Shown here: in pieces, positions 13,433-38,719 of the stretch | How the letters are laid out: every line of letters begins with the position of its first letter | Position numbering within the stretch: the stretch's first letter is position 1 | Source: Chloroflexota bacterium | GTDB taxonomy: Bacteria > Chloroflexota > UBA6077 > JAJPHF01 | DNA length: 64,000 nt | Reading direction: 5' to 3' | NCBI GenBank assembly: GCA_035294645.1 | Contig: DATGKN010000119.1 | Location: 8,972-72,971 of the forward strand | Notes under the pieces: model-generated | Told to the model about the DNA's origin: nothing | The model's input: the letters and a program-made list of their open reading frames with translations, nothing else | Databases searched by the model: none | Translations under genes and position numbers: made by a program

Positions 13433-13451
13433 CGTTATCGCCTCTCCCCGC

Positions 13452-14210: not shown

Positions 14211-14216
14211 GAGTCC

Positions 14217-15137: not shown

Positions 15138-15138
15138 C

Positions 15139-16035: not shown

Positions 16036-16041
16036 GGCACG

Positions 16042-17238: not shown

Positions 17239-17462
17239 GCCCGTCGCTCGCCTCGGCCTACCCGCAGCGGGTACGGGGTGATGACTACAGCGGGAGGCAA
17301 CTACCTAGCCCGCTGGGCCCCAGCCCCGGCCTTCGCGCTGCCCGTCCGCGCATTAGATAGCATGCCGCGGCCCACCGCAACCGGGTGTGCCAGAGTTGTG
17401 ACCTGCCGGCAGTATACTCGCCCCCCCATCCGTGGTCCGCTCGCCGCACCAGGCGCCGCGCG

Positions 17463-18245
17463 TCAACGCTCGCGCGCGGGCAGCGGCAGCGGCTGGTCTT
17501 GGCGGTACGGCAGCCCCAGGCGCAGCGCGACCTCGGCGCGCGCCAGCTCGGCGCCCAGGTACGCCGCGTGGTCGAGCCGCGAGACGAGCCCGGCGGCCAG
17601 GATCGCGCGGTACAGCTCGGCGGCCGTGCGCCCCACGAAGCGATGGCCCGTCGGCCCGCTGAGGGCGGTCGCGTGGGCGACCACGATCTGCCCCTCGGCC
17701 ACCGCGACCAGGAAGTTGCCCAGCGGGTCGGGCTCCCAGCTCGCCCCGGCGGACGGCTGGGCCAGTGGGACGGCATCGAGTGGTGGCGGCGTCCACCCGG
17801 CGGGCACCAGCACCGGCGTGCCCGTCGCGGTCGGCGGGGGCAAGGCACGGATCGCCGCGGCCACGCGCGCCGGATCGGTGCAACCGCGCAGGTCGACCGC
17901 CCTGACCTGGCGGCGGAAGCGCTCGACAGCCGCGGGGGGCAGGCGCAGCTCGGTGCCTGGCACGGTGCCGTCCGCAGCCAGGCCGTGCGCGACCAGGGCC
18001 ACCAGGGCGCGGCCGCTGCCCGTGTAATCGACGCCGCAGACGACCAAGTAGCGCAGTGTGGGGTGGGCCAGCACGCTATCGACCAACAGGCCAATGCCCC
18101 ACAGCGAGTAGAGGTTGCCGCAGGCAGCGTACAACTCCCGCGGCACGCCCGCCAGGATGCGGTCCTGGGGCGTCCAGAGGGTCACGAGCCCCACAGGACT
18201 CGCAGGGTCGCCGAGAGTGACCTCGGGGGGATAGCTGCTAGCCAT
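17463..18245 (-). CDS. MtrA-like protein (homolog of tetrahydromethanopterin S-methyltransferase subunit A) with DUF4346-like C-terminal half
   Basis: Recalled alignment to archaeal MtrA: ...VTLGDPASPVGLVTLWTP / YVVGNPESCVGVVTLGSH and LRYLVVCGVDYTGSGRALVALVAHGLAADGTVPGTE...AVERFRRQVRAVDLRGCTDPARVAAAIRAL / [34 protein letters not shown]...AVERFRQQIEIVDLID. Identified from memory, not from a search. Confidence 0.6.
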   Translation of the reverse strand: MASSYPPEVTLGDPASPVGLVTLWTPQDRILAGVPRELYAACGNLYSLWGIGLLVDSVLAHPTLRYLVVCGVDYTGSGRALVALVAHGLAADGTVPGTELRLPPAAVERFRRQVRAVDLRGCTDPARVAAAIRALPPPTATGTPVLVPAGWTPPPLDAVPLAQPSAGASWEPDPLGNFLVAVAEGQIVVAHATALSGPTGHRFVGRTAAELYRAILAAGLVSRLDHAAYLGAELARAEVALRLGLPYRQDQPLPLPARER

Positions 18246-18471
18246 TGCGCGTCGGCAAGTCCCCTTTCTGTGGGCAGGATACGCGGCGCACAGACCCGCA
18301 ACAAGCGCTGCGGGGCCGACCGCGGGTATGGAATCCTCTATAGCGAGAAGCGCCCGCCAGGGGCGTGGGGCGTACTGGCGCGCGATTGCCCCGCTGCTGG
18401 CAACATGGTACGATCACACAGTTGCCCGAGGCGGCAGGCGCGCGCTTGGCGAGAGCAGCGAGAGAGCGGCT

Positions 18472-25558: not shown

Positions 25559-26248
25559 TCAGCGCCGGCGGAGGTCGTCGAGGAACAGGATGGTCTCCCG
25601 CCAAGCATCGGCGGCGGCCGCCGGCAGGTAGCCCGAGCCCTCCGGCAGCGTGAAGGCGTGGCTCGCCCCGCTGTAGATCTTCAGCGCGAACGGCTTACCG
25701 TGGCGCTGCAGCGCCTGCGCCATCTCGATCGCGTGCTCCAGTGGCGCGCGCGGGTCGCCCGCGCAGTGCAGCATCAGCAGCGGCGCCCGGATGCGCGCCG
25801 CCCCGTCGATCGCCGCCTGCGTCTCCTCCGGCGCGCGCTCTCGGGTGAGCGTACCGTGGTAGATCAGCCCGGCCCACGGCCAGTCCCAGCGCGCCAGGGC
25901 CAGGTACGCCACCCGGCCGCCGAAGCAGTAGCCGCCCACGGCGATGCGGTCGCCGTCCACGTACTCCTGCGTGCGCAGCCAGGCGGCGGCGTCGGCCACG
26001 TACTGGAGCACCTCCTCGGTGGACGGCGTGGCGACGCGCGACTGCCAGTCGATCGCCAGCCCGACGTAGCCCTCGTCGCCGAACCGCTCGGCGGCGCGGC
26101 GGTTGCCCGCCTCCAGCCCGTTGAGCCCGTGCACCAGGATCACGGCCGGGAACCGGCCGGGCATGGCCGGCCGCCCCAGGTGGCCCCGCACCGTCGCCTC
26201 GCCGCTGCGGAAGCTCACGCTCTCGCCGGTCAGAATGCCCCAGCCCAT
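25559..26248 (-). CDS. Dienelactone hydrolase family alpha/beta hydrolase
   Basis: AVILVHG...GYCFGG nucleophile elbow...catalytic His near C-terminus (SHAF). Confidence 0.8.
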   Translation of the reverse strand: MGWGILTGESVSFRSGEATVRGHLGRPAMPGRFPAVILVHGLNGLEAGNRRAAERFGDEGYVGLAIDWQSRVATPSTEEVLQYVADAAAWLRTQEYVDGDRIAVGGYCFGGRVAYLALARWDWPWAGLIYHGTLTRERAPEETQAAIDGAARIRAPLLMLHCAGDPRAPLEHAIEMAQALQRHGKPFALKIYSGASHAFTLPEGSGYLPAAAADAWRETILFLDDLRRR

Positions 26249-26260
26249 GCTACCTCCTCT

Positions 26261-27355
26261 CTACACGGTCGCCGCCTGGCAGGCCGGAATGACCTGCTCG
26301 GCGAACAGGCGCAATGATCGCAAGGCTTGTTCGGCGGTCAGGTTGCCGAAGGCGAAGGCGCCCGCGAAGTAGTTGGCGCCGGTGATCGCCAGCGCCTCCT
26401 GCACGCGCTGGCGCACGGTGGCCGGCGAGCCGACGTAGATGCCGCCGATGGCCACGAACTCGTCCCAGTCGCCGCGCCGGATGCGCGTGTCGTTGTGCAG
26501 CGTCCAGAGGTAGCCGAAGCTCTCCAGGAACTCCTTGTACGCTTCCTTCGCCTCGCGCTCGGCCTGGGCGTCGGTCTCGGCCACGTACACATGGCGGGCC
26601 AGCCCGTAGCATGGCTCGGCCACATGGCCGTTCAGCCGCTGCGGGTCGCCGGCGTGGGCGGCGCGCTGGGCGTGGTAGATGGCGAATTGCTCGCGCGTGG
26701 CCTCCAGCGACGGGAACAGCGAGCCGAACATCGTGCTGAAGTTGTGCTGGCCGATCCAGGGCACCGAGGTCGGGTAGTTGGTCGGGTACCACAGCGGGGG
26801 GTAGGGCCGCTGGCGCGGCTGGTGGACCAACCGCACGTCCTTGAACGTGAAGTAGCGGCCCTCGAAGTTCACCGCGCCGGTGGCGAGCCCCTGGAGGATC
26901 ACCGTGAGCGCCTCCTGGAAGATGGCGCGGCTCTCGTCGAGCGACACGTGGAAAGGGTCCATCTCGTACGGCGACACGCCGCGGCCCACCCCGGGCTCTA
27001 GTCGCCCCCCCGCGAGGTGATCGAGCATGGCGATCTCTTCCATCAGCCGCAGGGGGTGGTACAGCGGCAGGACATACACCATGGGGCCGAGCCGGATGCG
27101 GCGCGTACGCTGGGCCGCGGCGGCCAGGAACAGGTTGGGCGAGGGCGCCATGCACAGGGGCGTCCAGTGGTGCTCGGCGAGGTGGTAGTAGGCGTAGCCG
27201 AGCCGGTCGGCGGCCTCGATCAGCCGCAGGCGGTCCTCGTACAGCGTGCTGAGATCCACGCCCCGGCGCTGGTCCAGCCAGTCGAAGATACCGAAGCGCA
27301 CGCGTGGGCTGGCACGCTCCAGCATGGAGGCGCCGGGCTCGGTCGTTGCAGACAT
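26261..27355 (-). CDS. LLM-class (luciferase-like) flavin/F420-dependent oxidoreductase
   Basis: Luciferase-like TIM barrel: FGIFDWLD...YYHLAEHHWTPLCMAPSPNLFLAAAAQRTRRIRLGPMVYVLP. Confidence 0.8.
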   Translation of the reverse strand: MSATTEPGASMLERASPRVRFGIFDWLDQRRGVDLSTLYEDRLRLIEAADRLGYAYYHLAEHHWTPLCMAPSPNLFLAAAAQRTRRIRLGPMVYVLPLYHPLRLMEEIAMLDHLAGGRLEPGVGRGVSPYEMDPFHVSLDESRAIFQEALTVILQGLATGAVNFEGRYFTFKDVRLVHQPRQRPYPPLWYPTNYPTSVPWIGQHNFSTMFGSLFPSLEATREQFAIYHAQRAAHAGDPQRLNGHVAEPCYGLARHVYVAETDAQAEREAKEAYKEFLESFGYLWTLHNDTRIRRGDWDEFVAIGGIYVGSPATVRQRVQEALAITGANYFAGAFAFGNLTAEQALRSLRLFAEQVIPACQAATV

Positions 27356-27431
27356 GGCCGTGTTCCCTCCCTCCAGGGCCGCTGGCGGGAGTATAGAGGG
27401 CGCGGCGCGCGCTCGCCAGCAGCAGCGCCGA

Positions 27432-28661
27432 CTACAGCGCGCCGGCCTCGCGCAGCGCGGCGATCTCCGCGGGGCTGAAGCCCGCGGCGGTCAGGATCTC
27501 GTCGGTGTGCTCGCCCAGCCGCGGCGCCGGGCGGCGGATCGTGCCGGGCGTGCGCGAGAGGCGGAACGCCATGCCGGGCATCTGCACCGTGCCCGCCGTG
27601 GGGTGCTCGACTGTGGCGCGCAGGCCGAGGTGCAGGACCTGCGGGTCGGCGAACACTTGCGCCAGGTCGTAGATCGGGCCGCAGGGCACCTCGGCGCGCT
27701 CCAGCAGCGCGAGGGCCTCGGCCATGGTCAGCTCGCGCAGCCGCGGCGTGATCGCCGCGATCAGCGCCTCGCGGTTGGTCACCCGATCGGCGTTAGTGCG
27801 GAAGCGCGGATCGTCCTGGAGCGCCTCGAGGCCCAGCGCGCGGCAGAAGCGCACCCAGATGGCCTCGTTGGCCACCCCGACGTTGATGTAGCCATCGGCC
27901 GTGGGCAGCGCCTCGTAGGGGGCGATCAGCGGGTGGCGGTTGCCCACGCGCCGCGGCGGCTGGCCGGTGGCGAAGTAGGCGCCGGCCTGATGCGACAGCA
28001 GCGCGACCAGGCCCCCCAGCATCGAGGTGTCGATGACCTGCCCCTGGCCAGAGCGGGTGCGCTCGTACAGCGCGGCCACGGTGGCGAAGGCGGCGAACAT
28101 GCCCGCGGCCAAGTCCCCGATGGGGATGCCCGCCTTGAGGGGCCCGCTCTCCTCTGTGCCCGTCAGGCTCATGATGCCGCCGATGCCCTGGAGGATCTGG
28201 TCGTAGGCGGGCTGGTCGCGCCGCGGGCCGTCCTGCCCGAAGCCGCTGACGGCCGTGTAGATCAGGTGTGGGTTGAGCGCGAGCGCCTGCTCGGGGCTGA
28301 GCCCCAGTCGCGCGAGCGTGCCAGGCCGGAAGTTCTCCACGAGGATGTCGGCCTGCTGGACGAGCCGATAGAGCACCTCGCGGGCGGCGGGCACCTTGAG
28401 GTTGAGCGTCAGCGAGCGCTTGTTGCGGTTGACGGTCAGGAAATAGGCGCTCTCGCCAGCGATGAACGGGGGGCCCCAGCCGCGCGTCTCGTCGCCCCCG
28501 GGTGGCTCGACCTTGAGCACGTCCGCTCCCAGGTCGCCCAGCATGAGCGTGCAGTAGGGCCCCGCCAGGGCGCGGGTGAGGTCGAGCACGACGATGCCCG
28601 CTAGCGGCCCGCCGATCGGCTGGGGCATGGGGCGCGGCTGGGCGGTTGGCTGCACGATCAC
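27432..28661 (-). CDS. Family III CoA-transferase (CaiB/BaiF family)
   Basis: GIVVLDLTRALAGPYCTLMLGDLGADVLKVEPPGGDETR, canonical CaiB/BaiF N-terminus. Confidence 0.88.
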   Translation of the reverse strand: MIVQPTAQPRPMPQPIGGPLAGIVVLDLTRALAGPYCTLMLGDLGADVLKVEPPGGDETRGWGPPFIAGESAYFLTVNRNKRSLTLNLKVPAAREVLYRLVQQADILVENFRPGTLARLGLSPEQALALNPHLIYTAVSGFGQDGPRRDQPAYDQILQGIGGIMSLTGTEESGPLKAGIPIGDLAAGMFAAFATVAALYERTRSGQGQVIDTSMLGGLVALLSHQAGAYFATGQPPRRVGNRHPLIAPYEALPTADGYINVGVANEAIWVRFCRALGLEALQDDPRFRTNADRVTNREALIAAITPRLRELTMAEALALLERAEVPCGPIYDLAQVFADPQVLHLGLRATVEHPTAGTVQMPGMAFRLSRTPGTIRRPAPRLGEHTDEILTAAGFSPAEIAALREAGAL

Positions 28662-28737
28662 CTGTCCGAGCGGCCGGTAGGCCGGCCTATTTCGCTGGTA
28701 TAGCAGAGCCGGCCCTCGCGTGCCCAGCGCCCGCCGG

Positions 28738-30570
28738 CTACGGCGCGGTGGCCGGCCGCGGCAGCCGCTCGCGGAGCCGCTCGAAGCCGTGCTGGAGGTG
28801 CTCCTGCAGCTCGTGCATCGTCTCCTGCACGTGGGCCAGGTGGCGCGCGATCGCCGCGCGGCGCCGCGAGGTGTACGGCCCGATGCGACGGTAGCGCTGG
28901 TACCGCGCGCGCACCAGCCGGCCCGGCGGGGTGGCCAGTAGCTGCGGCAGCTCGTGCGCGACGGCGGCGTGGACCGCCTGCACCGCCGCAGCCGGGTCGG
29001 TGTGCGCGCCGCCCGCCGGCTCGGGCACGATAGCGTCGATGATGCCCAGCTCCAGCAGGTCGGGCGCCGTGATGCGCAGCGCCGGGGCCAGGGCGGGCGC
29101 CTGGGTGGCGTCGCGGTACAGGATGGCCGAGGCGCCCTCCGGCGAGATGACCGAGAAGATAGCGTGCTCCTGCATCAGCACGCGGTCGGCCACCGCCAGC
29201 GCCAGCGCGCCCCCGCTGCCCCCCTCGCCGATCACCACGGCGAGGGTCGGCACCGGTAGGCTCACCATGCGCGCCAGGCAATGCGCGATCGCGTGGGCCA
29301 GCCCGCGGGCCTCGGCCTCCACCCCGGCCTCGGCGCCCGGGGTGTCCACGAAGGTGAGTAGCGGCAAGCGAAACTTGGCCGCCAGCCGCATCACCCGCAG
29401 GGCCTTGCGGTAGCCCTCGGGCAGCGCGCGCCCGCCGCGCCGGCGCGGGTCGTCGGGGTCGCGCTCCAACCCGATGGCCGCCACGGGCTGGCCGTCGAGC
29501 GTGCCGAGCCCGACGACCACCGCCGGGTCATCGCCATACGCCTGATCGCCGTGCAGCTCGTAGAAGTCGGGCAGCAGGCCACGGATGTAGTCGAGCGCGG
29601 TCGGCCGCGCGGGGTGGCGGGCGAGCTGGACCGTCTCCCACGCCGAGGGGCGCGGCCCGTCGGACGGCGCCGGGGCGCTCTCGGCGGGCGGCTCGCGCCG
29701 GGGCACGTGCGCGGGTGCCAGCAGGCCGAGCAGCGTCGCCAGCGTGGCGCGCAGCTCCGGGCGCGGCACCACGGCGTCGACGAAGCCGTGCGCGTGCAGG
29801 AACTCGGCGCTATGCGAGCGCTCGCCGGCCGCGGTGGCGCCGCCTGCCCCGGTCTGCTCGCGCACGCGCGGGCCGGCAAAGCCGATCAGCGCCCCGGGCT
29901 CGGCCAGGTGGATGTCGCCCAGGCTGGCGAAGCTGGCGAACACGCCGCCCGTGGTGGGGTGGGTAAGCACCACGATGTACGGCACCCGCGCGGCGTGCAG
30001 CCGGTGAGCCGCGGCGGCCGTCTTGGCCATCTGCATCAGCGACAGCATGCCCTCCTGCATGCGCGCGCCGCCGCTACCGATGATGGCGATCAGCGGCCAG
30101 CGCTGGCGCGCCGCCAGCTCGAACGCCAGCGCCACTTTTTCGCCCACCACCGAGCCCATACTGCCGCCGAGAAACTCGAAGTCGAGCACGGCGAGCACCG
30201 CCGGGCGCCCTTCTACGCGCAGCGTGCCGGTCACCACCGCCTCGCTCAGCCCGGTGCGCCGCTGCGCCTCCTCCAGCCGCGCCTGGTAGGGCATCCGATC
30301 GCTGAACCGCAAGGGGTCCACGGAGATCAGTTCGGCGTGCGTCTCGCGGAACGAGCCCGGGTCGGCCAGCGCGGCGATGCGCTCGCGGGCGCCGAGCGGG
30401 TAGTGGTAGCCGCAGTGGGGGCAGACGCGCAGGCGCTCATACAGCTCCGCGCCGTCGAGCGCGCCGGTGCAGCGCGTGCACTGGCGCGGCGGAGGTGACT
30501 CGACTGCAGCTGGGGGATCGGGAGCACGCCGGTGCCGCCAGTCCGCGAACAGCTCGGTCAGGTTCCGCAC
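28738..30570 (-). CDS. accDA: Fused acetyl-CoA-carboxylase-type carboxyltransferase, beta (AccD, Zn-ribbon) plus alpha (AccA) in one 610-aa polypeptide
   Basis: N-terminal AccD (CTRCTGAL...CPHCGYHYP; GGSMGSVVGEK). C-terminal AccA (LDYIRGLLPDFYELHGD...TPGAEAG...GEGGSGGALAL). Confidence 0.85.
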   Translation of the reverse strand: MRNLTELFADWRHRRAPDPPAAVESPPPRQCTRCTGALDGAELYERLRVCPHCGYHYPLGARERIAALADPGSFRETHAELISVDPLRFSDRMPYQARLEEAQRRTGLSEAVVTGTLRVEGRPAVLAVLDFEFLGGSMGSVVGEKVALAFELAARQRWPLIAIIGSGGARMQEGMLSLMQMAKTAAAAHRLHAARVPYIVVLTHPTTGGVFASFASLGDIHLAEPGALIGFAGPRVREQTGAGGATAAGERSHSAEFLHAHGFVDAVVPRPELRATLATLLGLLAPAHVPRREPPAESAPAPSDGPRPSAWETVQLARHPARPTALDYIRGLLPDFYELHGDQAYGDDPAVVVGLGTLDGQPVAAIGLERDPDDPRRRGGRALPEGYRKALRVMRLAAKFRLPLLTFVDTPGAEAGVEAEARGLAHAIAHCLARMVSLPVPTLAVVIGEGGSGGALALAVADRVLMQEHAIFSVISPEGASAILYRDATQAPALAPALRITAPDLLELGIIDAIVPEPAGGAHTDPAAAVQAVHAAVAHELPQLLATPPGRLVRARYQRYRRIGPYTSRRRAAIARHLAHVQETMHELQEHLQHGFERLRERLPRPATAP

Positions 30571-30758
30571 AAGCCCTCCTCGGCGCGCGGCCTGTGGCCA
30601 GCCTTTTTGGCTGCCGGCGGAACGCTCGCGGGCGCCGCTGCCCGCGGCGGCGCTGCCGTATCCTAGGTCTAGTCTACTCCAGTGCGCGGGCGAGCGACAT
30701 CTCGGCGCTGCAACGCCGGTGCGTGCCGTACACGGCGAGCAGCGGGGGAGAACACAGG

Positions 30759-31334
30759 GTGACCGCTCGGCGGGTGTGGGTGGGCGAAGACGCCGGCCAG
30801 CGGGCGCTGTTCGTCGAGGGCGTGGTCCAGTCGGTCGCGGCGGCCGATGCCTTGCGGGGGCCGGGCTACTGGCCCGCCATGCTGCCCGACGCGCGCCCGC
30901 GCCGCGCGCTGCTGCTGGGCCTGGGCGGCGGCACGATCGCCCACCTGCTGGTGCGCCGTTTCGGGCCGCTGCCGCTGGTGGGCGTCGAGATCGATCCCGA
31001 CGTGCTGGCGGTCGCCCGCGCCGCGTTCGACCTCGCCCTGCCGTCGCTAACCGTGGTCGAGGGCGACGCGGTCGATTACATCGCCACCTGCACCGAGCGC
31101 TTCGACTACATCTGCGTCGATCTGTACCGCGGCGCGGAGCCCGAGCGGCGCGTGTACGCGCGCCCGTTCCTGCGCCAGCTCCGCGCGCGGTGCCTGCCGG
31201 GCGGGCTGGTGGTGTTCAACCTGTTTCGCGACGGGCGCACCGCGCGCCGGCTGCACCGCCTCCAGCAGGTGTTCCCACACACCACCAGCGAGCGCATCGG
31301 CCAGAACATCGTCGTGCGCGCCCGCGTTCCTTGA
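30759..31334 (+). CDS. Spermidine-synthase-like class I SAM-dependent methyltransferase
   Basis: RALLLGLGGGTIAHLL...VEIDPDVLAVAR...DYICVDLY. GTG start with GGGGGAG RBS; the upstream track extension is not coding-like. Confidence 0.6.
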   Translation: MTARRVWVGEDAGQRALFVEGVVQSVAAADALRGPGYWPAMLPDARPRRALLLGLGGGTIAHLLVRRFGPLPLVGVEIDPDVLAVARAAFDLALPSLTVVEGDAVDYIATCTERFDYICVDLYRGAEPERRVYARPFLRQLRARCLPGGLVVFNLFRDGRTARRLHRLQQVFPHTTSERIGQNIVVRARVP

Positions 31335-31389
31335 GCCAGGGCGCAGCGCCCAGTGCCCGCTGCCGGCAGGCGATCGATGTTCGTCTCGC

Positions 31390-31887
31390 TCAGCGGTCGG
31401 CTTGGAGCTTGCGCGCGGCGGCCAGGATCGAGCGCACGATCCCCTCGTAGCCGGTGCAGCGGCATAGGTTGCCGGCGGCGTTCTCGCGCACCTCGCGCTC
31501 GGTCGGGTTGGGATTGTCGCGCAGGAACTCGTAGGCCGCCATCAGCACCCCTGGGGTGCAGAAACCACACTGGAGGCCGTGGTGCTCCCAGAACGCCTCC
31601 TGCAAGGGGTGCAGCTGCTCGCCGCGCGCCAGCCCCTCGACGGTCATGATCTCGGCGCCATCGACCTGCACGGCGAACAGCAGGCAGGAGCGCACCGCCC
31701 GGCCGTCCACCAGCACGGTGCAGGCGCCGCAGATGCCGTGCTCGCAGCCCACGTGCGTGCCCGTCAGGCCCAGGTCCTCGCGCAGGAAGTCGCTCAGCAG
31801 CCGTCGCGGCTCGACCTGGCCCTCGTACTCGATCCCGTTCACGCGCACGGTGATCGCTTGCTTGCGCGTGCGCGCCACGTGGCGCAT
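31390..31887 (-). CDS. coxS: Molybdenum hydroxylase small subunit, [2Fe-2S]-binding (CoxS/XdhC-like)
   Basis: GCEHGICGACTV and QCGFCTPG iron-sulfur motifs. Confidence 0.9.
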   Translation of the reverse strand: MRHVARTRKQAITVRVNGIEYEGQVEPRRLLSDFLREDLGLTGTHVGCEHGICGACTVLVDGRAVRSCLLFAVQVDGAEIMTVEGLARGEQLHPLQEAFWEHHGLQCGFCTPGVLMAAYEFLRDNPNPTEREVRENAAGNLCRCTGYEGIVRSILAAARKLQADR

Positions 31888-31908
31888 GCTGCACCTCCCT
31901 CTCGCGCT

Positions 31909-32790
31909 CTACTGGGTATCGGCCGCGGCGGCGCGCTGGAGAGCGAGCCGCAGCGCCCGCCGCGTCAGCACGCGCACCATGTCGCGCCGGTAGTCGGCGC
32001 TGGCGTGAATATCGCTCTCCGGCTCGGCCTGCGCGGCGGCGCGCACCCCCGCCTCGGCGAACAGCTCCTCGCCGGGGCGCTCGCCGACCAACAGCGCCTC
32101 CGCCTCGGTGGCCTTGATCGGTACCGGCCCCGCGCCGCACAGGCCGATGCCGGCGCGCGCCACCGTGCCGTCGGGGGCCAGCTCGAGCTGCACGCCCACA
32201 CCGACCATGGCGTAGTCGCCGTGCCGCCGGCTCAGCTCCAGGAACGCGCCGCCGTGCCGCCCCGTGGGCAGCCGGAAGCGCGCCTCGACCAGCAGCTCGG
32301 TCGGGTCGAGCGTGGTAGTCAGATAGGTGAGATAGAACTCTTCCGGTGCCAGCGGGCGCTGGCCGGCGACGCTGGCCGCCACCAGCTCGCCGCCCAGCGC
32401 CACCAGCACGGCGGGCAGCTCGGAGGCCGGATCGGCGTGCGCCAGGTTGCCGCCGATGGTGCCGCGGTTGCGGATCTGCGCGTGGCCGAGGGCGTGCAGC
32501 GCGTCGGCGACGAGCGGCAGGTGCTGCCGGACCAGCGGGTAGCGCTCCAGGGTGCGCTGGCGCGTGATGGCGCCGATGGCGAGCCAGCCGTTCTCCTCGC
32601 GGATGTAGTCCAGCTCGCGCAGGCGGTTGATGTCGACCAGCGCCTCGGGCTTGGCCAGCCGCATGTTCAGCAGCGGCACGAGGCTCTGGCCGCCAGCGAG
32701 GATCTTCGCCGCGTCGCCGCGCTCGGCCAGCACGGCCAGCGCCTCGTCCAGCGTGTCGGGCGCGTAGTAGTCGAAAGCGGCGGGCTTCAC
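31909..32790 (-). CDS. coxM: Molybdenum hydroxylase FAD-binding medium subunit (CoxM-like)
   Basis: FAD-binding PCMH domain (AGGQSLVPLL...IRNRGTIGGNLAHADPASE). GTGA start overlaps the coxL stop. Confidence 0.88.
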   Translation of the reverse strand: MKPAAFDYYAPDTLDEALAVLAERGDAAKILAGGQSLVPLLNMRLAKPEALVDINRLRELDYIREENGWLAIGAITRQRTLERYPLVRQHLPLVADALHALGHAQIRNRGTIGGNLAHADPASELPAVLVALGGELVAASVAGQRPLAPEEFYLTYLTTTLDPTELLVEARFRLPTGRHGGAFLELSRRHGDYAMVGVGVQLELAPDGTVARAGIGLCGAGPVPIKATEAEALLVGERPGEELFAEAGVRAAAQAEPESDIHASADYRRDMVRVLTRRALRLALQRAAAADTQ

Positions 32791-35222
32791 GGTTGGCCTC
32801 CCGTGGCCTGGCGGGCACGCGCCTCGCGTAGCAGCGCCCACACTTTGCTCGGCGTGATCGGCAGCGAGGTGATCTCGATGCCCAGCGGCTTGAGCGCGTC
32901 GGCCACGGCGTTGGCGATCGCCGCGGGCGCCGTCTCCGAGCTGCTCTCGCCCACCCCCTTGGCGCCGGTGAGCGAGGCGGGCGTGGGATATTCGACGTGG
33001 CCGATGGTCAGCGGCGGCGCCTCCATCGCCGTCGGACAGAGGTAGTCCATGAAGGTGCCCGCCAGGAACGCGCCGTTCTCGTCGTACACCATCTCCTCGT
33101 ACATCGCGCCGGCCATCCCATGCAGCACCGCGCCCCAGATCTGGCCCTCGACGAGCAGCGGGTTCAGGATGCGGCCGGCGTCGTGCATCGAGTAGTAGTG
33201 CTGGAGCTGGATCTCGCCGGTCTCGGGGTCGATCTCCACGGCCACGATCTCGCCCACGAAGCCGTACAGCTGCGACGAGTTGACGCGGTCCTGGTCGTCG
33301 GGCGCCACGGCGTGCTCGAAGTTCCACACCGAGGTGTTCTGCAGGCCCGGCTCGATGCCGGGTGGCAGCGCGTTGGGGTTCCAGTGGGCCACCCCGGCCA
33401 CGCGGCGGAACGTCACGTTGCGGTCGGGCTGGCCCTTGACGAAGAACACGCCGTCTTCGAGCACCACGTCGTCGGGGGCGGCCTCCAGCAGGTGGGCGGC
33501 GATGGCGCGCATCTTCTCCTTGACGCGCCGCGCCGCCAGTAGCGTGGCGCTAGCTCCCGCCGCGGCGAAGCGGCTGGAGTAGGTGCCCGTGGCGATCGAC
33601 CAGGCGCGCGAGTTGCTGTCGAAGTCGGCCACCACACGTACGTTCTCGATGGGGATGCCGAACTCCTCGGCCACCAGCTGCGCGACGGTCGTCTCGTGGC
33701 CCTGGCCCTCGGGACAGGTGTTGATCGTGCAGGTCACGTTGCCGCGAGCGTCGACCATCACCGTGCCCGTCTCGGCGGCGCCCGACTTAGCCTGGTAGCC
33801 GGGGCGCTGGCGCAGCTTGCGGTCGAAGGCGATCGTCACGTAGCCCATGTTGGACACCGACGGGTCGACCGCCAGCGCGATGCCGATGCCGTACAGGCGG
33901 CCCGCGGCCCGCGCCCGCGCCTGCTCCTCGCGCAGCCGGGCGTAGTTGGCCAGCTCCAGGAGCTTCTCGAAGGTGGCCGGGTAGTCGCCCGCGTCGTAGA
34001 TGCCGCCGGTGGGCGTGGTGTACGGCATGGCGCTGCCGGGGATGAGGTTGCGGCGCCGCAGCTCGGCCGGGTCCAGGCCCAGCGTGTCGGCCGCCTTGTC
34101 CAGCAGCCGCTCGATGTTGAAGTACAGGTGCTGGCAGCCGTAGCCGCGGTTGGGGCCCGTGAGCGACTTGTTGGTGTGCACCGCGTAGGCTTCGACGGCC
34201 AGGTGCTGGAACCGGTAGGGGCCGACCTGGTTGCCCAGCGGGCGGAACAGGCAGCCGGGGTCCGGGGCGCGGATGTAGGCGCCCACGTTGTCGATCAGCT
34301 TCTGGCGCATGCCCAAAATCGTGCCGTCGCGCTTGAGCGCCACCTCCATGTAGGCCACGCGGTCGGTGTTCGACGAGCTGGCGGCCAGGTGTTCGAGGCG
34401 GTCCTCGACCCACTTCACCGGCACGCCCGTCTTGCGCGCGGCCAGCGCGATCAGCGCGATGTAGGGGAACATGCTCGACTTAATGCCGAACCCGCCGCCG
34501 ATATCCGGCGGCACGATGAACCGTAGCTTGTTCTCCGGTGTGCGCAGCGCCCGTGCAGTGACCGGGTGCAGGCTGAACGGCCCCTGGAAGTTGGACCAGA
34601 TGGTGTACTCGCCGTTGATCGGGTTGAACTGGGCGATGACGGCGTAGCACTCCATCGGCGTGGAGCTGTACTTGGGGAACACCTGCCGCTGGCTGACGAC
34701 CACATCGGCCTCGGCAAAGGCCGCGTCGGGGTCGCCGTAGCGCAGGCTGCGGTGGCAAGCGATGTTGTGGCCGATGTCCTCGTGCAACACCGGCGCGTCG
34801 GGCGCCATGGCCCGCTCGGGGTCGACCACGGCGGGCAGCGGCTCGTAGTCGACCTCGATCAGCTCGCGCGCGTCCTCGGCGATGTAGCGGTCTTTGGCCA
34901 CCACCACGCACACCGGCTCGCCCACGAAGCGCACCTTGTCGGTGGCGGTGGCGTAGTAGCGCACGGGCGTTTCCACCCCCACGGGGAACGGGTCGGACAT
35001 CTCCAACACGTCCTGGGGAGTGAGGATGCCGACCACGCCCGGCACGGCCAGCGCCCGCTCGATGTTGACCGACCGGATGCGCGCGTGGGCGTGGGGGCTG
35101 CGCAGGATGGCGGCGTGGTACAGCACCGGCAGCGGGCGCAGGTCGTCCACGTAGGTGCCTTGGCCCGTCAGCAGGCGCGGGTCCTCGGCGCGCTTGATCG
35201 GCTGGCCGATCCACTTGGGCAT
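32787..35222 (-). CDS. coxL: Molybdenum hydroxylase large (molybdopterin) subunit, xanthine dehydrogenase family; not a bona fide CO dehydrogenase
   Basis: Large-subunit fold (MPKWIGQPIKRAEDPRLLTGQGTYVDD...). The active-site loop reads VGAYIRAPDPG, not AYRCSFR/AYRGAGR. Confidence 0.85.
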   Translation of the reverse strand: MPKWIGQPIKRAEDPRLLTGQGTYVDDLRPLPVLYHAAILRSPHAHARIRSVNIERALAVPGVVGILTPQDVLEMSDPFPVGVETPVRYYATATDKVRFVGEPVCVVVAKDRYIAEDARELIEVDYEPLPAVVDPERAMAPDAPVLHEDIGHNIACHRSLRYGDPDAAFAEADVVVSQRQVFPKYSSTPMECYAVIAQFNPINGEYTIWSNFQGPFSLHPVTARALRTPENKLRFIVPPDIGGGFGIKSSMFPYIALIALAARKTGVPVKWVEDRLEHLAASSSNTDRVAYMEVALKRDGTILGMRQKLIDNVGAYIRAPDPGCLFRPLGNQVGPYRFQHLAVEAYAVHTNKSLTGPNRGYGCQHLYFNIERLLDKAADTLGLDPAELRRRNLIPGSAMPYTTPTGGIYDAGDYPATFEKLLELANYARLREEQARARAAGRLYGIGIALAVDPSVSNMGYVTIAFDRKLRQRPGYQAKSGAAETGTVMVDARGNVTCTINTCPEGQGHETTVAQLVAEEFGIPIENVRVVADFDSNSRAWSIATGTYSSRFAAAGASATLLAARRVKEKMRAIAAHLLEAAPDDVVLEDGVFFVKGQPDRNVTFRRVAGVAHWNPNALPPGIEPGLQNTSVWNFEHAVAPDDQDRVNSSQLYGFVGEIVAVEIDPETGEIQLQHYYSMHDAGRILNPLLVEGQIWGAVLHGMAGAMYEEMVYDENGAFLAGTFMDYLCPTAMEAPPLTIGHVEYPTPASLTGAKGVGESSSETAPAAIANAVADALKPLGIEITSLPITPSKVWALLREARARQATGGQP

Positions 35223-35249
35223 GGCTCGTTCCCTCTGCGGTGTGGGCCG

Positions 35250-36074
35250 CTACAGCCGCAGCAGACGTGCGGCGGTACCTCCCAGGATAGCTTGCAGCGC
35301 AGCGTCGTCCAATGGCAGGCGCCGCAGGGCGGCGATGTTGTCGCCGATCTCGGTAGGGATCCCCGGCCAGTCGGAGCCGAACACGCACTTGTGGGCGATG
35401 CGCGGCAGGTCGGGAAAGTAGGCGAGCAGCTTGTGCGGCGGCAGCCCCGCCAGGTCGATGTACACGTTGGCGTGCAGCCGGGCCAGCGCCGCCGCGCGAT
35501 CGTACCAGAACGGCCGCCCGCCGTGGCACAGCAGCAGGTTCAGCTCCGGGAAATCGACCGCCACGTCATCGAGATAGAGCGGGTCGCCGTACTTGAGCCG
35601 CGCGCCGGGGAAGACGGACGAGCCGGTGTGGCACAGCACGGGAATCCCCAGCTCCTGCGCACGGGCGTACAGCGGGTACAGCAGCGGGTCGTTCGGGTAG
35701 TAGTAGCTGTAGGTGGGGTACAGCTTCAGCGCCCGAAAGCCCAGCTCGCGCACCAGGCGGTCGAGCTGGCGCGCCGGCTCGCGATCGACGAACGGGTTCA
35801 GGCTGGCACACGGCAGCAGGCGCGGACTCGCCGCGCAGAACTGGGCCACGTACTCGTTGCTGATCACCCCGGGCGAGGCGGGCGTGTTGGAGGCCAGCAC
35901 TAGGGCGTAGTCCACCCCCTGCTCGTCCAGATAGGCCAGGAACCGGTGGGGATCGGCCCACTCGGCGACGAACGCCGCGTAGGGCTGTCGGCGATTGGCC
36001 TCGACATGGGCCGCGTAGCCCGGGCTGAGCACCTCCATCCGCGCGGTGTGCACGTGGCAGTCGACGACCGGCAT
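35250..36074 (-). CDS. Amidohydrolase_2 family (ACMSD-like metal-dependent hydrolase/decarboxylase)
   Basis: MPVVDCHVHT...CHTG...LLLCHGGRPFW...FGSDWP, PF04909-type motifs. Confidence 0.8.
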   Translation of the reverse strand: MPVVDCHVHTARMEVLSPGYAAHVEANRRQPYAAFVAEWADPHRFLAYLDEQGVDYALVLASNTPASPGVISNEYVAQFCAASPRLLPCASLNPFVDREPARQLDRLVRELGFRALKLYPTYSYYYPNDPLLYPLYARAQELGIPVLCHTGSSVFPGARLKYGDPLYLDDVAVDFPELNLLLCHGGRPFWYDRAAALARLHANVYIDLAGLPPHKLLAYFPDLPRIAHKCVFGSDWPGIPTEIGDNIAALRRLPLDDAALQAILGGTAARLLRL

Positions 36075-36092
36075 CGCCTCGCTACCGCCCCC

Positions 36093-36440
36093 CTACTTCT
36101 TGTAGTAGCGCACCTCGAAGGTGGTGCAGCCCTCTGGCGCGACCCAGGGGCCGTGCGGCATGCCGGGCGGCCGGCAGGCGTACATCCCCTTGGTGAACGT
36201 CTGGTTCAGAGAGAGGTCGTGTAGGCTCCCGTCGATGATCCAGACCTCCTCCCAGAAGTCGTGCCGCTGCACGCCCAGCGGCGAGGTGTCGGTGCCGGGC
36301 TCGAAGCGCAGCATCCGGGTGTAATCCCCCGTCTCGGGGTCGCGGCTGAGGATCCGCTGCTTGAGCCCCGGGACCTCGAGGTCTTCCCACGGGATCGACG
36401 AGGGATCGAAAAATTCGTACTCGGGCTTGGGCATGCCCAC
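36093..36440 (-). CDS. Small cupin-domain protein
   Basis: 115 aa; beta-barrel cupin-like sequence (…HDFWEEVWIIDGSLHD…). Confidence 0.6.
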   Translation of the reverse strand: MGMPKPEYEFFDPSSIPWEDLEVPGLKQRILSRDPETGDYTRMLRFEPGTDTSPLGVQRHDFWEEVWIIDGSLHDLSLNQTFTKGMYACRPPGMPHGPWVAPEGCTTFEVRYYKK

Positions 36441-36496
36441 GCTCCCTCTGTAAAAACTCTACCGCGCCAAGCCGTCTGCCGCCCCGGCCGCTCCAC

Positions 36497-37159
36497 TCAG
36501 ACATCCAGGTCGTCGACCACCCTTACCGTGTAGGCGCAGCGCAGCGCGCGCCCGTCGGGGTGCGCCAGCACGGCCGTGAACTGGGTGCCGCAGCGCAGCG
36601 CGCCCCCGAGCAGGGGCAGCGTGCCGCAGAAGATCGCGCTGCCCTCCAGGTCGCCTCCTACGCGCTGGCGCACCAGAGCGAGAATCGCATCGGGCGGTAG
36701 CAGCTCGGCCACGCTCCCCTCTTGGTACGGCGCTCCGTCGACCTCGCTGCGCAGGTGGCAGCGATCCCAGGCATCGCGCACGGCCGCCCAGCGCCATGCG
36801 GCACGCGAGATCGGCTTGGGACAGACTTGCTTGCTGCGCGCGACGTGCAGGCGCTCCAACGCGCGGTCGGTATGGTCGCTGCCCACGGCGACGTACAGCT
36901 CGCCGCCCGTGTACAGCAGGACGAACTCGGCCTCACCGGAGGTGTCGCGCCCCACCACGTAGACGTGCTCCGCGGTAGTCAGGCGATCGGGCGCCAAGGC
37001 GTACAGCGCGGGCGTGCGCGCCGGGGCTGGAATGCCGTGCTCGCGCAGCTCGGCGATGTGGCGCGCGACAGCGGCCTGGTCACGACCAGTGTAGCCCGCG
37101 ATCAGCAGGCGCCGCGGCTCGAACGCCACCGCCGTACCCTCGACTTCGAGCTGCAACAC
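36497..37159 (-). CDS. DUF2848 domain protein
   Basis: GTG start preceded by GGAGGGAG. VLQLEVEGTAVAFEPRRLLIAGYTGRD... family, often adjacent to amidohydrolases. Confidence 0.6.
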   Translation of the reverse strand: MLQLEVEGTAVAFEPRRLLIAGYTGRDQAAVARHIAELREHGIPAPARTPALYALAPDRLTTAEHVYVVGRDTSGEAEFVLLYTGGELYVAVGSDHTDRALERLHVARSKQVCPKPISRAAWRWAAVRDAWDRCHLRSEVDGAPYQEGSVAELLPPDAILALVRQRVGGDLEGSAIFCGTLPLLGGALRCGTQFTAVLAHPDGRALRCAYTVRVVDDLDV

Positions 37160-37382
37160 GCTCCCTCCTCGCTGCTCCAGGGCTGTGCCTCCAGCTCCCC
37201 GGCGCGGCTTCGCCCCATTGTAGCACCGCCTTCCCCTCCCCACCGCGCTGCCGCTCGGCGGCCCGCCCTCGCCTTGCAGACGGTAATTGCGGTCTGTGCG
37301 GGCACGGCCCTATACCAGCCGGGAACCCACGAGGCCGGAACGCGAGAGCACAGCGGCGTCACGCCGCGGAGAAGGCAGAGGT

Positions 37383-38159
37383 ATGATGCGAGCGCTTCAG
37401 CAGCCCCTAGCCGTGGGATTTCTCGGGCTGGCACTCGCCGTGGGCACCGTGGTCAGTACAGCGGCCCTCCCGGCTCCCCTAGCCGCCGCGCAGGCGACGC
37501 CCTCTCCGAGTCCGACCAGCGTCGGCGGCGCTGGCCAGCCGTCGCGCGAGGCCGAGGGCAGTGGACAAGCCGTGGCGACCAGCAGCGAGGGGCCGCCGCC
37601 CACTGGCGCCGCGTCGAACACGCCCACCCCAACAGTCAGCGCCGCCCCCACACGTCAGGTGGCTACGGCCGCTGGCAGCGACAGCGCCGCGCCGCCCAGT
37701 GGCCAAGGCACCACCGGCGGTGGGCAGACGGGTAGCGGCCAGCCTGCGGCGGGCAGCAGCGAGGCCAGCAGCCAGGGCAGCGGGGGAACCCAGGCGAGCG
37801 GCCAAACCACAGCCGGGGGCCAAGAGACGGCAGGCGCGAGCCAGAACGCCAGTCCGGGCGGGCAGCCCGCCGGCGCGCCGCAGGAGGCGGGCAGCACGGC
37901 GGGATCCTCGTCCGGCACGGGCCAAGCAGCAGGCGCGACGACCGCCGCGGTAGATCCGGCCGCGCCGTTCATCGCTCGGCTCGACCGGCTCGAGGCCGCC
38001 CTGCGCGCGGGCGACTGCACAGCGGCCGCCGGTGAGCTCGCGGCGATCAATCGCGAGGGGCCCGACGCCCTGGTGCGCGCTGGCCTGAGCCAGCGCCAGA
38101 TCGAGGAGCTCCAGCGGCGCTTCGGGGAGCTCTTGCTGCTCGGCTTCCAGCGCTGCTGA
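37383..38159 (+). CDS. Secreted low-complexity (Gly/Ser/Thr/Ala/Gln-rich) protein with small structured C-terminal domain
   Basis: Signal peptide (MMRALQQPLAVGFLGLALAVGTVVSTAALPAPLAAAQA). About 150 aa of low-complexity linker. C-terminal helical domain containing Cys. Confidence 0.55.
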   Translation: MMRALQQPLAVGFLGLALAVGTVVSTAALPAPLAAAQATPSPSPTSVGGAGQPSREAEGSGQAVATSSEGPPPTGAASNTPTPTVSAAPTRQVATAAGSDSAAPPSGQGTTGGGQTGSGQPAAGSSEASSQGSGGTQASGQTTAGGQETAGASQNASPGGQPAGAPQEAGSTAGSSSGTGQAAGATTAAVDPAAPFIARLDRLEAALRAGDCTAAAGELAAINREGPDALVRAGLSQRQIEELQRRFGELLLLGFQRC

Positions 38160-38224: not shown

Positions 38225-38719
38225 TTGTCGTTTAATCGCGCGGTGATGTATCCAGCGGCACGACGACGGCCTCCTCGCCTGGCGCGGCTGCTCGACCGGG
38301 CCTGGGCGCGCTATGACGACCTCAGCGACCCGCAGCGGGTACTGCTCGGCGTCCTCCTGGCGCTCGTGCTGGCGGCCAGCGCGCTGTACCTGCTCGGCGC
38401 GGCCAGCCTGCTCGCGCTCCAACGCTGGCCCGAGGGACTACCGCCCTCAACGACCAGTCCCCAGCAAGCGGCCGCCTCCCCAACCGAGGAGGTCGAGCCT
38501 ATCTCGCCCCTGTTAGCGGACATCACTCCCACGCTACGGCCGACGCTCACGCCCCGGCCCACCTCCACAGCCTCCCCCACGCCGCCCCGCGCGAGCGGGC
38601 TGCCGGGCGCGGGGCCCCCGAGCGTTTCCCCGGGCGGCCGCCCGCTCGGCCTCACTACCCCGACGCCCACGGGCCGCGGGATCGCCATCACCCCCACGCC
38701 CCCGCGCTCCCTGCGCTGA
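38225..38719 (+). CDS. Membrane-anchored protein with Pro/Thr-rich tail (start uncertain)
   Basis: One TM helix ([26 protein letters not shown]) then PT-rich sequence. An alternative ATG lies about 21 nt downstream of the ORF start. Confidence 0.45.

Follow-up and report, generated by a model that had tools for sequence, protein, structure and literature searches.

Positions 25559-37159 of a 64,000-nucleotide stretch from a Chloroflexota bacterium (contig DATGKN010000119.1; the whole stretch is hereafter called the window) carry eleven genes that an earlier note, made from the letters alone, had read as a single catabolic island. Comparisons of gene order and homology across genomes show, as far as sequence evidence goes, that at least three independent units lie next to one another in this 11.6-kb stretch. 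The first (unit 1), a six-gene operon at 31390-37159 on the minus strand, encodes a DUF2848 protein, a Cupin_7 protein, an Amidohydro_2 metal hydrolase and the large, medium and small subunits (CoxL, CoxM and CoxS) of a molybdenum (Mo) hydroxylase. Unit 2 consists of a fused AccD-AccA carboxyltransferase (AccDA) and a family III CoA-transferase (CoAT3), which reside in a housekeeping backbone with OxMolyb, Sir2, PFK and FtsZ. Unit 3 comprises two variable genes for a luciferase-like (LLM) oxidoreductase and a dienelactone hydrolase (DLH)-family protein. CoxLMS is best described, from its sequence relationships, as a 2-furoyl-CoA-dehydrogenase-like (hetero)aroyl-CoA hydroxylase. The explanation we favour, and regard as probable rather than secure, is that independent units lie side by side and that the operon resembles the furoate (hmf) cluster and would carry out furoate-pathway-type chemistry.

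A synteny break divides the eleven genes

One close relative (locus L187) is collinear with the window only from position 45952 to 31388, which is the CoxS stop codon, at 88% nucleotide identity. This shared stretch includes PucR, GlnA, CdaA, OTCase and two low-complexity genes as well as the six operon genes, whose products are 87-96% identical at the amino acid level. Immediately 3′ of CoxS, L187 carries genes for a PaaK-type CoA ligase, a 4HBT (hotdog) thioesterase, CoA_trans and a UbiD decarboxylase, and the collinearity with L188 and L001 stops at the same CoxS stop codon. A different relative (L101) is collinear with the window only from the AccDA start (30570), through CoAT3, Oxidored_molyb, Sir2 and PFK to FtsZ, with 74% identity for AccDA and 78% for CoAT3. 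It lacks the LLM, DLH and PMT_2 glycosyltransferase genes and has very different genes upstream of its AccDA.

A rearrangement breakpoint therefore lies at 30571-31387. It is filled by a SpeE/methyltransferase-like open reading frame (ORF) that has no counterpart in L187 or L101 and whose start is uncertain because, as drawn, it overlaps the AccDA start. To judge from the relatives, the rearrangement replaced the usual tail of the operon, namely the genes for the PaaK-type ligase, hotdog thioesterase, CoA_trans and UbiD. A search for repeats at the junction returned only short GC-rich matches at chance level. It is possible that the join at 30571-31387 is a chimeric metagenome assembly, in which case the proposed island would be even less real.

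Gene spacing gives the same division. The gaps from DUF2848 to CoxS are 56, 18, 27, -4 and 21 bp, with a GGAGG-like site before each start, and only these six genes combine a common direction with the short gaps of a single operon. The distance from CoxS to AccDA is 819 bp, with an opposite-strand ORF between them.

We also examined gene neighbourhoods, as the earlier note had proposed for DUF2848 and for the fused AccDA, by using 80 species-representative genomes for DUF2848 (counts within 10 kb) and 80 metagenome loci for AccDA. AccDA, DLH and the methyltransferase occur in none of the 80 DUF2848 loci and CoAT3 in four of them, and DUF2848, Cupin_7 and an HmfA-type CoxL (the furoyl-CoA dehydrogenase type described below) occur in none of the 80 AccDA loci. 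Thus, the two halves never co-occur (0/80 and 0/80). A catabolic cluster of unfamiliar architecture is indeed present, as had been claimed, and the single eleven-gene island is not: its architecture is found in neither set of loci, and it straddles the synteny break between CoxS and AccDA.

The six-gene operon is conserved in two phyla

The order DUF2848-Cupin_7-Amidohydro_2-CoxL-CoxM-CoxS recurs in three Chloroflexota metagenome-assembled genomes (MAGs; L001-L003), in which CoxL is 85% identical to that of the window, and in the Chloroflexota loci L187 and L188. A Symbiobacteriaceae contig (L183) also carries the operon, with 58% identity for CoxL, 57% for the amidohydrolase and identical CoxL loops. 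There, a Nit-type CN_hydrolase gene lies ahead of the operon, CoxG lies inside it, and a PaaK-type ligase that is 69% identical to the L001 ligase follows it. Codon differences between the window and L187 are synonymous only in 386 cases and amino-acid-changing in 130, and the synonymous excess is seen in every gene. This excess argues that the operon is kept by selection despite its lost downstream tail in this genome. Judging from these comparisons, the operon is conserved across phyla and under purifying selection.

The presumed promoter region is the 5′ intergenic region. No sigma-70 consensus was found there, a promoter and terminator scan gave no signal above that of shuffled sequences, and an Rfam search returned no match, including none to a Moco riboswitch. 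Divergent from the operon are two Pro/Thr/Ser/Gly-rich low-complexity proteins without Pfam match (37287-38159 and 38225-38719, both plus strand), one with a signal-peptide-like N terminus and the other with a membrane anchor. Their C-terminal parts are 81-84% conserved in L187 at the amino acid level, so they are probably real genes.

The hydroxylase belongs to the HmfA clade

The three Cox genes are contiguous and translationally coupled, and they encode the three-subunit architecture of the xanthine dehydrogenase (XDH) family: a Mo-pterin large subunit, an FAD medium subunit and a small subunit with two [2Fe-2S] clusters. The earlier note had taken VGAYIRAPDPG as the active-site loop of CoxL and had concluded that the enzyme is neither a form I (AYRCSFR) nor a form II (AYRGAGR) carbon monoxide dehydrogenase (CODH). 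The conclusion stands, although the loop was misplaced. That segment corresponds to residues 313-323 and is not homologous to the CODH loop. When CoxL is aligned to the structures 1n5w and 8uem, residues 354-364 (LTGPNRGYGCQ) line up with the CODH loop, which reads VAYRCSFR in 1n5w; the GPNRGYGCQ within them is neither CODH form. NCBIfam CODH models score CoxL at 547-557, compared with cutoffs of 950-991.

Over trimmed alignment columns, CoxL is 46-56% identical to HmfA-type proteins, compared with 31-40% to CODH and Qor (35% for Qor). In a neighbour-joining tree that left out PicA and other uncrystallised enzymes, the HmfA-type proteins and the window CoxL form one clade in 200 of 200 bootstraps, with CODH and Qor outside. 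The clade is marked by a one-residue insertion before GGxFG and by the motif G[GA]Y[IL]RxPEP, both of which the window CoxL has; the latter is the very segment that had been taken for the active-site loop. Within this clade, CoxL falls in a distinct, uncharacterised sub-branch (188/200), which has a loop of its own, TGPNRGYG[CA].

Consistent with this placement are the plasmid sequences that match CoxL in tblastn searches: G. kaustophilus pHTA426 (54.7%), D. shibae pDSHI01 (47.7%) and C. necator NH9 pENH92 (roughly 46%). All three matches reside within canonical hmfABC-hmfD-hmfE clusters. A UbiD gene (HmfF) is near all three, and a UbiX gene (HmfG) is near those of D. shibae and C. necator. 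Furfural degradation is confirmed for D. shibae, whose HmfA shares only 54% identity with the C. basilensis protein, and is supported by preliminary data for G. kaustophilus (PMC3223595). In addition, homologues with 60-81% identity to CoxL carry the KO-based JGI name '2-furoyl-CoA dehydrogenase large subunit'. A PaaK-type ligase adjoins the CoxL sub-branch in L001-3, L187/188, L183 and L094, with 66-80% mutual identity among the ligases, and UbiD or UbiX is adjacent to CoxL in L093, L094, L095 and L187. The UbiD of L187 was considered as an HmfF-like protein and rejected as not specifically so (33% identity).

An N-heteroaromatic substrate had been expected for the hydroxylase. CoxL instead falls in the characterised HmfA clade, whose known cluster differs from that of the window, and the strict N-heterocycle reading is refuted: among characterised substrates, the nearest is an acyl-CoA with an O-heteroaromatic ring rather than a free N-heterocycle. 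What survives is a plausible link to nitrogen, since DUF2848 and Cupin_7 lie beside amide hydrolases elsewhere.

Three accessory metal enzymes of fitting families

The DUF2848 protein returned no significant match in a sequence search of the PDB. Its AlphaFold2 model (pLDDT 95) matches enzymes of the fumarylacetoacetate hydrolase (FAH) family in Foldseek with probability 1.0 and TM scores of 0.6-0.7, and its neighbours are fumarylpyruvate hydrolase, FAHD1, HpcE and KdaD. Residues E76, E78, D95, D98 and K110 are invariant. The protein is thus predicted to be a divergent FAH-fold metal enzyme with a putative acidic metal-binding cluster.

In the Cupin_7 protein, the invariant residues H60, E64, E65, H96, R42 and R90 would be compatible with a metal site of the 2-His-1-carboxylate type for a substrate with a carboxylate group. 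A 140-amino-acid ORF at 36082-36504 was also considered as the cupin and rejected, because it lies in the wrong frame and has no Pfam match; the real cupin gene is the one at 36093-36440.

The amidohydrolase retains the metal ligands D5, H7, H9, H149, H184 and D235 (HxH, His, His, Asp) as invariant residues. A profile search of the PDB gives the uncharacterised BB4693 at 4e-22, followed by LigW, LigJ, gamma-RSD, ACMSD and LigY at 1e-9 to 1e-5, and Foldseek returns the same neighbours. These matches place it, by homology, in the ACMSD/LigW/LigJ/LigY branch, not among the LigI-type lactonases, and in an uncharacterised subfamily; JGI labels its homologues 'predicted TIM-barrel fold metal-dependent hydrolase'. 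All three accessory enzymes keep their metal-site residues, and their families act on 2-oxo or enol carboxylates.

DUF2848 and Cupin_7 form a widespread module

In a collection of 185,579 species genomes, at least 582 stretches encoding the DUF2848-Cupin_7 module were confirmed. Among the 80 sampled DUF2848 loci, Cupin_7 is present beside DUF2848 in 64-68. Other families found near it are a Nit1/YafV-like CN_hydrolase (36), XDH-family large subunits of several clades (29), a GntR-FCD regulator (27), an F420-type LLM (18), an HpaB-like monooxygenase (17), a PreA-like DHOdh-Fer4 protein (16), a signature amidase (16), a 2-oxoacid:ferredoxin oxidoreductase (10), a flavin reductase (9) and an AMP-forming CoA ligase (6). 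The linked XDH large subunits are of the HmfA type in L064 and L065 and related to Qor in L009, L019, L021, L025, L062 and L074. In Bacilli the arrangement is GntR-(small reductase)-HpaB-CN_hydrolase-DUF2848-Cupin_7. The window was searched for CN_hydrolase, GntR, amidase, HpaB and MocA genes, and none was found.

Strict-anaerobe lineages (for example Desulfosporosinus, Syntrophaceticus, Desulfobacterales and Syntrophorhabdales) carry the module too, next to ferredoxin-dependent enzymes, an occurrence that argues against an obligatory dioxygenase role of the cupin. A recurrent architecture in L004/L014 and L059 combines the module with two XDH-family enzymes, a small ferredoxin, a three-subunit 2-oxoacid:ferredoxin oxidoreductase, a PreA-like DHOdh-Fer4 protein, a CN_hydrolase and a branched-chain-type ABC transporter, and looks like an uncharacterised anaerobic N-heterocycle pathway.

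On plasmid pNK83 of Caballeronia sp. NK8 (L184, 239234-261192), a canonical hmf cluster (hmfE, AraC regulator, hmfABC, hmfD and MFS transporter) and another cluster, with the order flavin reductase-HpaB-cupin-amidase-substrate-binding protein-DUF2848-ABC transporter, are about 5 kb apart; this pair may represent a furoate route beside a route for a nitrogen analogue. On the megaplasmid of R. solanacearum SY1 (L185, 1082862-1087614), DUF2848 and the cupin directly follow a YbdL-type aminotransferase (PRK09082, 466 bits against a cutoff of 420). In an Acidobacteria MAG (L011) they directly follow a class I/II aminotransferase, and glutamine synthetase is also there. These aminotransferase neighbours hint that the module acts on a product of transamination, for example 2-oxoglutaramate. 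A literature search on DUF2848 and on combinations of the module families found no publication, and one on pyrrole-2-carboxylate established no more than the existence of a 1997 enzymology reference.

A proposed furoate-type route

The furoate (Trudgill) pathway has been textbook knowledge since 1969. In this pathway, furoate is converted to furoyl-CoA, which undergoes Mo-dependent hydroxylation at C5 and enol-keto tautomerization to a lactone; lactone hydrolysis, described as "spontaneous or catalysed", is followed by a second tautomerization to 2-oxoglutaroyl-CoA and by thioester hydrolysis (PMC3223595). The lactone hydrolysis and the two tautomerizations have no assigned enzyme (PMC3223595).

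By analogy, a (hetero)aromatic carboxylate would first be activated to its CoA thioester by a ligase encoded elsewhere in the genome. The Mo enzyme would then use water to hydroxylate the ring carbon beside the heteroatom of a furan- or pyrrole-type 2-carbonyl-CoA, and the enol product would tautomerize to a lactone or lactam. The tautomerizations and the hydrolytic ring opening that lack an enzyme in the canonical pathway would fall to the three accessory metal enzymes. This would yield a 2-oxo acid of the 2-oxoglutarate type. With nitrogen as the heteroatom, the product would instead be the amide of that acid, and the CN_hydrolase genes of L183 and elsewhere would then be accounted for. Candidates for every step are encoded in L187: UbiD for an upstream decarboxylation, the PaaK-type ligase, the HmfA-type hydroxylase, the three metal enzymes and the 4HBT thioesterase.

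A broader and more tentative proposal, to which we would give only a minor chance, is that DUF2848 and Cupin_7 (here with the ACMSD-type amidohydrolase) form an unrecognized module that opens 5-hydroxylated heteroaromatic 2-carboxylates to the open-chain forms of 2-oxoglutarate or 2-oxoglutaramate. Its inputs might be five-membered-ring substrates or the equivalent cyclic 2-hydroxy-5-oxoproline and 2-oxoglutaramate species. If this is true, the module would supply the lactone or lactam opening and the tautomerizations of the Trudgill furoate pathway and of pyrrole-2-carboxylate catabolism. Moreover, a single hypothesis would cover its association with HmfA- and Qor-type hydroxylases, HpaB, Nit/omega-amidase-like hydrolases, YbdL-type (glutamine) aminotransferases and 2-oxoacid:ferredoxin oxidoreductases, and the operon would give Chloroflexota a CoA-dependent route that processes a furan- or pyrrole-type acid without oxygen.

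A number of observations weigh against a furoate-type function. The CoxL loop TGPNRGYGCQ differs from the TGL[VN]RGFGGPQ of verified HmfA proteins, and the segment after the catalytic Glu reads GESSS rather than GEGN(C/N)MS. The associated PaaK-type ligase is unrelated to HmfD (25% identity over 160 amino acids). Given this ligase, the CoxLMS substrate is probably not 2-furoate itself. The neighbour-joining tree sampled few characterized XDH-family enzymes. The closest characterized relatives of the amidohydrolase are decarboxylases and a hydratase, not lactonases. Elsewhere, the commonest neighbours of DUF2848 and Cupin_7 are amidases (Nit-type or signature), HpaB, Qor-like hydroxylases and aminotransferases, with no CoA enzymes among them, and the substrate of the module may be a free acid. 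Furthermore, CoA ligase, thioesterase, HmfD, HmfE, CoxG, XdhC and UbiD/X genes are absent from the 64-kb window, so the pathway is locally incomplete in this genome.

The carboxyltransferase and CoA-transferase are a separate pair

The fused AccDA scores 325.7 with the AccA_sub model (cutoff 300), 337 with accA PRK05724 (357) and 309.2 with accD (317.45), and it has the AccD-type Cys4 zinc ribbon (CTRC...CPHC). Its homologues at 42-50% identity sit in accB-accC-fab clusters, and among the 80 AccDA loci the counts are 43 for AccC, 42 for FabZ, 41 for FabK, 39 for FabF, 38 for FabG and 36 for AccB. The best NCBIfam match of CoAT3 is succinate--glutarate CoA-transferase, at 377 bits compared with a cutoff of 750. 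In eight of the 23 closest AccDA loci (L101, L112-L116, L118 and L119), AccDA has a CoAT3 orthologue (52-78% identity) as its immediate neighbour, on one side or the other and often with an overlap; two more of the 23 (L103 and L105) carry a more distant homologue at 35% identity. None of these ten loci has accB, accC or fab genes nearby. The suggestion that the carboxyltransferase and CoA-transferase act together thus gains from their being a conserved pair, while their supposed tie to the Mo-hydroxylase operon fails: no link was found, and the pair is unrelated to that operon. Beside AccDA and CoAT3 in L112 (958-3312) and L119 (13990-16344) are XDH large subunits of a different clade, with a form-II-CoxL-like PYRGAGRP loop; they are roughly 41% identical to the window CoxL, and the neighbouring CoxS genes 66%.

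One function for the pair would be biotin-independent dicarboxylate decarboxylation, for example of malonate, with transfer of CoA from an acyl-CoA to give malonyl-CoA and then acetyl-CoA and CO2. The pairing itself, in loci free of accB, accC and fab, is what this reading would predict, as is the absence of biotin carboxylase and biotin carboxyl carrier protein (BCCP) from the window. The best matches of CoAT3 are to dicarboxylate CoA-transferases (succinate-glutarate, mesaconate and oxalate), and AccDA gives weak matches to the beta and gamma subunits of malonate decarboxylase. However, its accA and accD scores are at or near the trusted cutoffs and four to six times its malonate decarboxylase scores, and the zinc ribbon is that of AccD. 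The 42-50% homologues in canonical accBC/fab clusters make the identity gradient look taxonomic, not functional. In E. coli, accA and accD are likewise unlinked to accBC. Decarboxylation by the pair is therefore unlikely, if by no means far-fetched, and the fused protein is most likely, from its sequence, an ordinary carboxyltransferase of acetyl-CoA carboxylase (ACC).

Other readings of the operon

The operon could alternatively follow the logic of picolinate or gentisate degradation, in which a free heteroaromatic acid would undergo Mo-dependent hydroxylation, the resulting ortho-hydroxy acid would undergo ACMSD-type decarboxylation, the cupin would act as an Fe(II) dioxygenase that cleaves the ring with O2, and DUF2848 would hydrolyse the fission product. 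The 2-His-1-Glu site of the cupin, the fold that DUF2848 shares with fumarylpyruvate and fumarylacetoacetate hydrolases, and the aromatic decarboxylases closest to the amidohydrolase all fit this scheme. So do the frequent amide hydrolases near the module and the loci L007 and L008, where the module lies among Rieske dioxygenases and a gentisate-dioxygenase-like cupin. The carriage of the module by strict-anaerobe lineages, beside ferredoxin-type enzymes, is nevertheless hard to square with an obligate dioxygenase, and a CoA thioester is indicated both by the clade of CoxL and by the CoA ligase that co-evolves with it. We consider this oxygen-dependent route improbable.

Far less probable still is that the eleven genes form one catabolic island in which the Mo hydroxylase acts on a free N-heteroaromatic ring and AccDA and CoAT3 carboxylate or decarboxylate a CoA-thioester intermediate. 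It is true that all eleven genes are enzyme-like and ten are co-directional, that AccDA and CoAT3 are a conserved pair, that XDH-family subunits occur near AccDA in four loci (L112, L117, L118 and L119), and that an LLM gene accompanies DUF2848 in 18 of 80 loci. However, the XDH enzymes of L112 and L119 belong to the form-II-like clade with the PYRGAGRP loop, the window LLM is only 22-41% identical to the LLMs linked to DUF2848, and CoxL groups with HmfA rather than with the Qor-like clade to which N-heterocycle hydroxylases belong. Together with the 819-bp separation and the failure of the halves to co-occur in either set of 80 loci, the synteny break exactly between CoxS and AccDA leaves this reading largely refuted.

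Two further schemes were rejected. A route by uracil/thymine dehydrogenase through barbiturate to malonate, and then to the CoA-transferase and carboxyltransferase, conflicts with the HmfA placement of CoxL, the lack of a barbiturase-type gene and the absence of a link to AccDA-CoAT3; a sugar-acid pathway (glyceraldehyde dehydrogenase-like CoxSML with a lactonase and an FAH-family enzyme) conflicts with scores for the NCBIfam glyceraldehyde-dehydrogenase models that are all under cutoff and with an amidohydrolase outside the lactonase branch.

Gene inventory and surroundings

Genes were called by third-position GC in the window, which has a GC content of 72% and which, to judge from DUF2848 homologues, comes from an uncultured Chloroflexota bacterium. 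Pfam and NCBIfam assignments give eleven genes within 25559-37159 (Table 1) and bear out every family that the earlier note had named, from DLH to DUF2848. Ten genes, rather than the nine it had counted, are on the minus strand; the only plus-strand gene, the SpeE-like ORF at 30495-31334, was not named there. Its observation that the carboxyltransferase has no biotin carboxylase or BCCP partner nearby extends to the whole window, where a search for AccB and AccC found only CarB ATP-grasp domains that match AccC at 21-27% identity.

Table 1 Features of the 11.6-kb stretch and the adjoining intergenic region
Feature	Position	Strand	Length (aa)	Assignment and remarks
DLH-family alpha/beta hydrolase (variable gene)	25559-26248	-		Pfam DLH, 2.9e-31; 12 bp after LLM
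LLM oxidoreductase (variable gene)	26261-27355	-		Pfam Bac_luciferase, 2.6e-51
Family III CoA-transferase (CoAT3)	27432-28661	-	409	Pfam CoA_transf_3, 8e-137
Fused AccD-AccA carboxyltransferase	28738-30570	-	610	NCBIfam; first gene of housekeeping backbone
SpeE/methyltransferase-like ORF	30495-31334	+		Weak Pfam Spermine_synth, 1.3e-6; NCBIfam PRK04457, 4.7e-19, far under cutoff
CoxS, [2Fe-2S] small subunit	31390-31887	-	165	Pfam Fer2, Fer2_2; last gene of operon here
CoxM, FAD-binding medium subunit	31909-32790	-	293	Pfam FAD_binding_5, CO_deh_flav_C; start overlaps CoxL stop by 4 bp
CoxL, Mo-hydroxylase large subunit	32787-35222	-	811	Pfam Ald_Xan_dh_C, MoCoBD_1, MoCoBD_2
Amidohydro_2 metal hydrolase	35250-36074	-	274	Pfam, 5e-43
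Cupin_7 protein	36093-36440	-	115	Pfam PF12973, 2.5e-13; obligate DUF2848 partner
DUF2848 protein	36497-37159	-	220	Pfam PF11010, 4.1e-61; first gene of operon; homologues about 220 aa
5′ intergenic region, presumed promoter region (inferred)	37160-37286			ORF map; divergent from two low-complexity genes

The GC content of 25559-37159 (0.69-0.75) does not differ from that of the rest of the window (0.69-0.78), and no tRNAs, Rfam matches or mobile-element genes were found, so there is no compositional sign of an island. Indeed, none of the usual marks of a genomic island (composition, tRNA, integrase, repeats, and presence or absence as a single block) was detected, and in relatives either half varies without regard to the other.

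Housekeeping genes flank the stretch: Tad pilus genes, ParA, FtsZ, PFK and Sir2 lie to one side of it, and OTCase, CdaA-YbbR, Der, GlnA and pyrR-pyrB-carAB to the other. The Tad/Flp pilus locus (11481-17304) encodes TadE-like and TadG-like proteins, RcpC/CpaB, two T2SSF proteins and a response-regulator-ParA/CpaE-type ATPase. Adjoining the ParA/FtsZ region is a gene (17463-18413, minus strand) for an MtrA-like (tetrahydromethanopterin S-methyltransferase subunit A) and PterinBD-DUF4346 protein. On the other side, a PucR-family regulator (PucR, GGDEF_2 and HTH_30) directly upstream of glutamine synthetase (44514-47779, minus strand) is kept in L187, and a 489-amino-acid ORF (56721-58190, minus strand) shows strong codon-position GC periodicity and no Pfam match.

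Significance

What remains of the proposed island is an hmf-like operon, conserved but locally truncated, that carries three accessory enzymes and lies beside unrelated genes. The interest of this finding is that an HmfA-type hydroxylase is fixed, in two phyla, in an operon with three uncharacterized metal enzymes of fitting chemical families, and what the finding chiefly offers is a way into the function of the widespread DUF2848-Cupin_7 module. Cultured, tractable carriers of the module include Priestia megaterium, Neobacillus bataviensis, Ralstonia solanacearum, Pantoea vagans and Caballeronia sp. NK8, and its function is therefore directly testable. There are also two lessons for annotation: a rearrangement can create a plausible-looking 'catabolic island', and an AccD-AccA fusion without nearby biotin partners need not be catabolic.

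Comparison with known systems

The closest known system is the hmfABCDE furoate cluster of C. basilensis HMF14, which has a three-subunit Mo hydroxylase (the 2-furoyl-CoA dehydrogenase HmfABC) with a large subunit of the same clade as that of the window, together with the furoyl-CoA synthetase HmfD and the 2-oxoglutaroyl-CoA hydrolase HmfE. In relatives of the window operon, the CoA ligase, thioesterase and UbiD match the roles of HmfD, HmfE and HmfF, although the ligase is PaaK-type rather than HmfD-type and the thioesterase is a hotdog 4HBT protein rather than a crotonase. Adjacent HmfD and HmfE genes were the criterion used by Koopman and Wierckx for HmfABC (PMC3223595). A tblastn search of the window with HmfD and HmfE from three organisms gave no match, and the window hydroxylase thus has no such neighbours, nor does the window contain a CoxG/SRPBCC domain or gene. 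Conversely, the window operon adds DUF2848, Cupin_7 and Amidohydro_2, which canonical hmf clusters lack.

The CODH enzymes (CoxSML; 1n5w and 8uem) share the family and the subunit architecture, and the best PDB match of CoxL is the M. smegmatis CoxL (2.7e-152). They differ in that the window CoxL lacks both AYRCSFR and AYRGAGR, is 36-40% identical and occupies a separate clade with a long branch. The N-heterocycle Mo hydroxylases Qor (1t3q) and Kdh (7dqx; 6-hydroxypseudooxynicotine dehydrogenase) are of the same family, with the window CoxL outside the Qor clade. In the picolinate pathway (PicA/PicC logic), a Mo hydroxylase is combined with an ACMSD-type Amidohydro_2 protein, as in the window.

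With regard to the separate carboxyltransferase, both halves resemble the E. coli-type ACC subunits closely enough to reach or approach the trusted cutoffs, and fused homologues sit in accBC/fab clusters. The difference is that the window halves are fused and that this lineage pairs AccDA with CoAT3, not with accBC/fab. Finally, DUF2848 has the fold of the FAH superfamily, which also includes L-2,4-diketo-3-deoxyrhamnonate hydrolase and the oxaloacetate decarboxylase/acylpyruvase FAHD1, and has an ExE...D acidic cluster with a conserved Lys. It differs from that superfamily in being only 12-20% identical to any solved member and in having Cupin_7 as an obligate partner.

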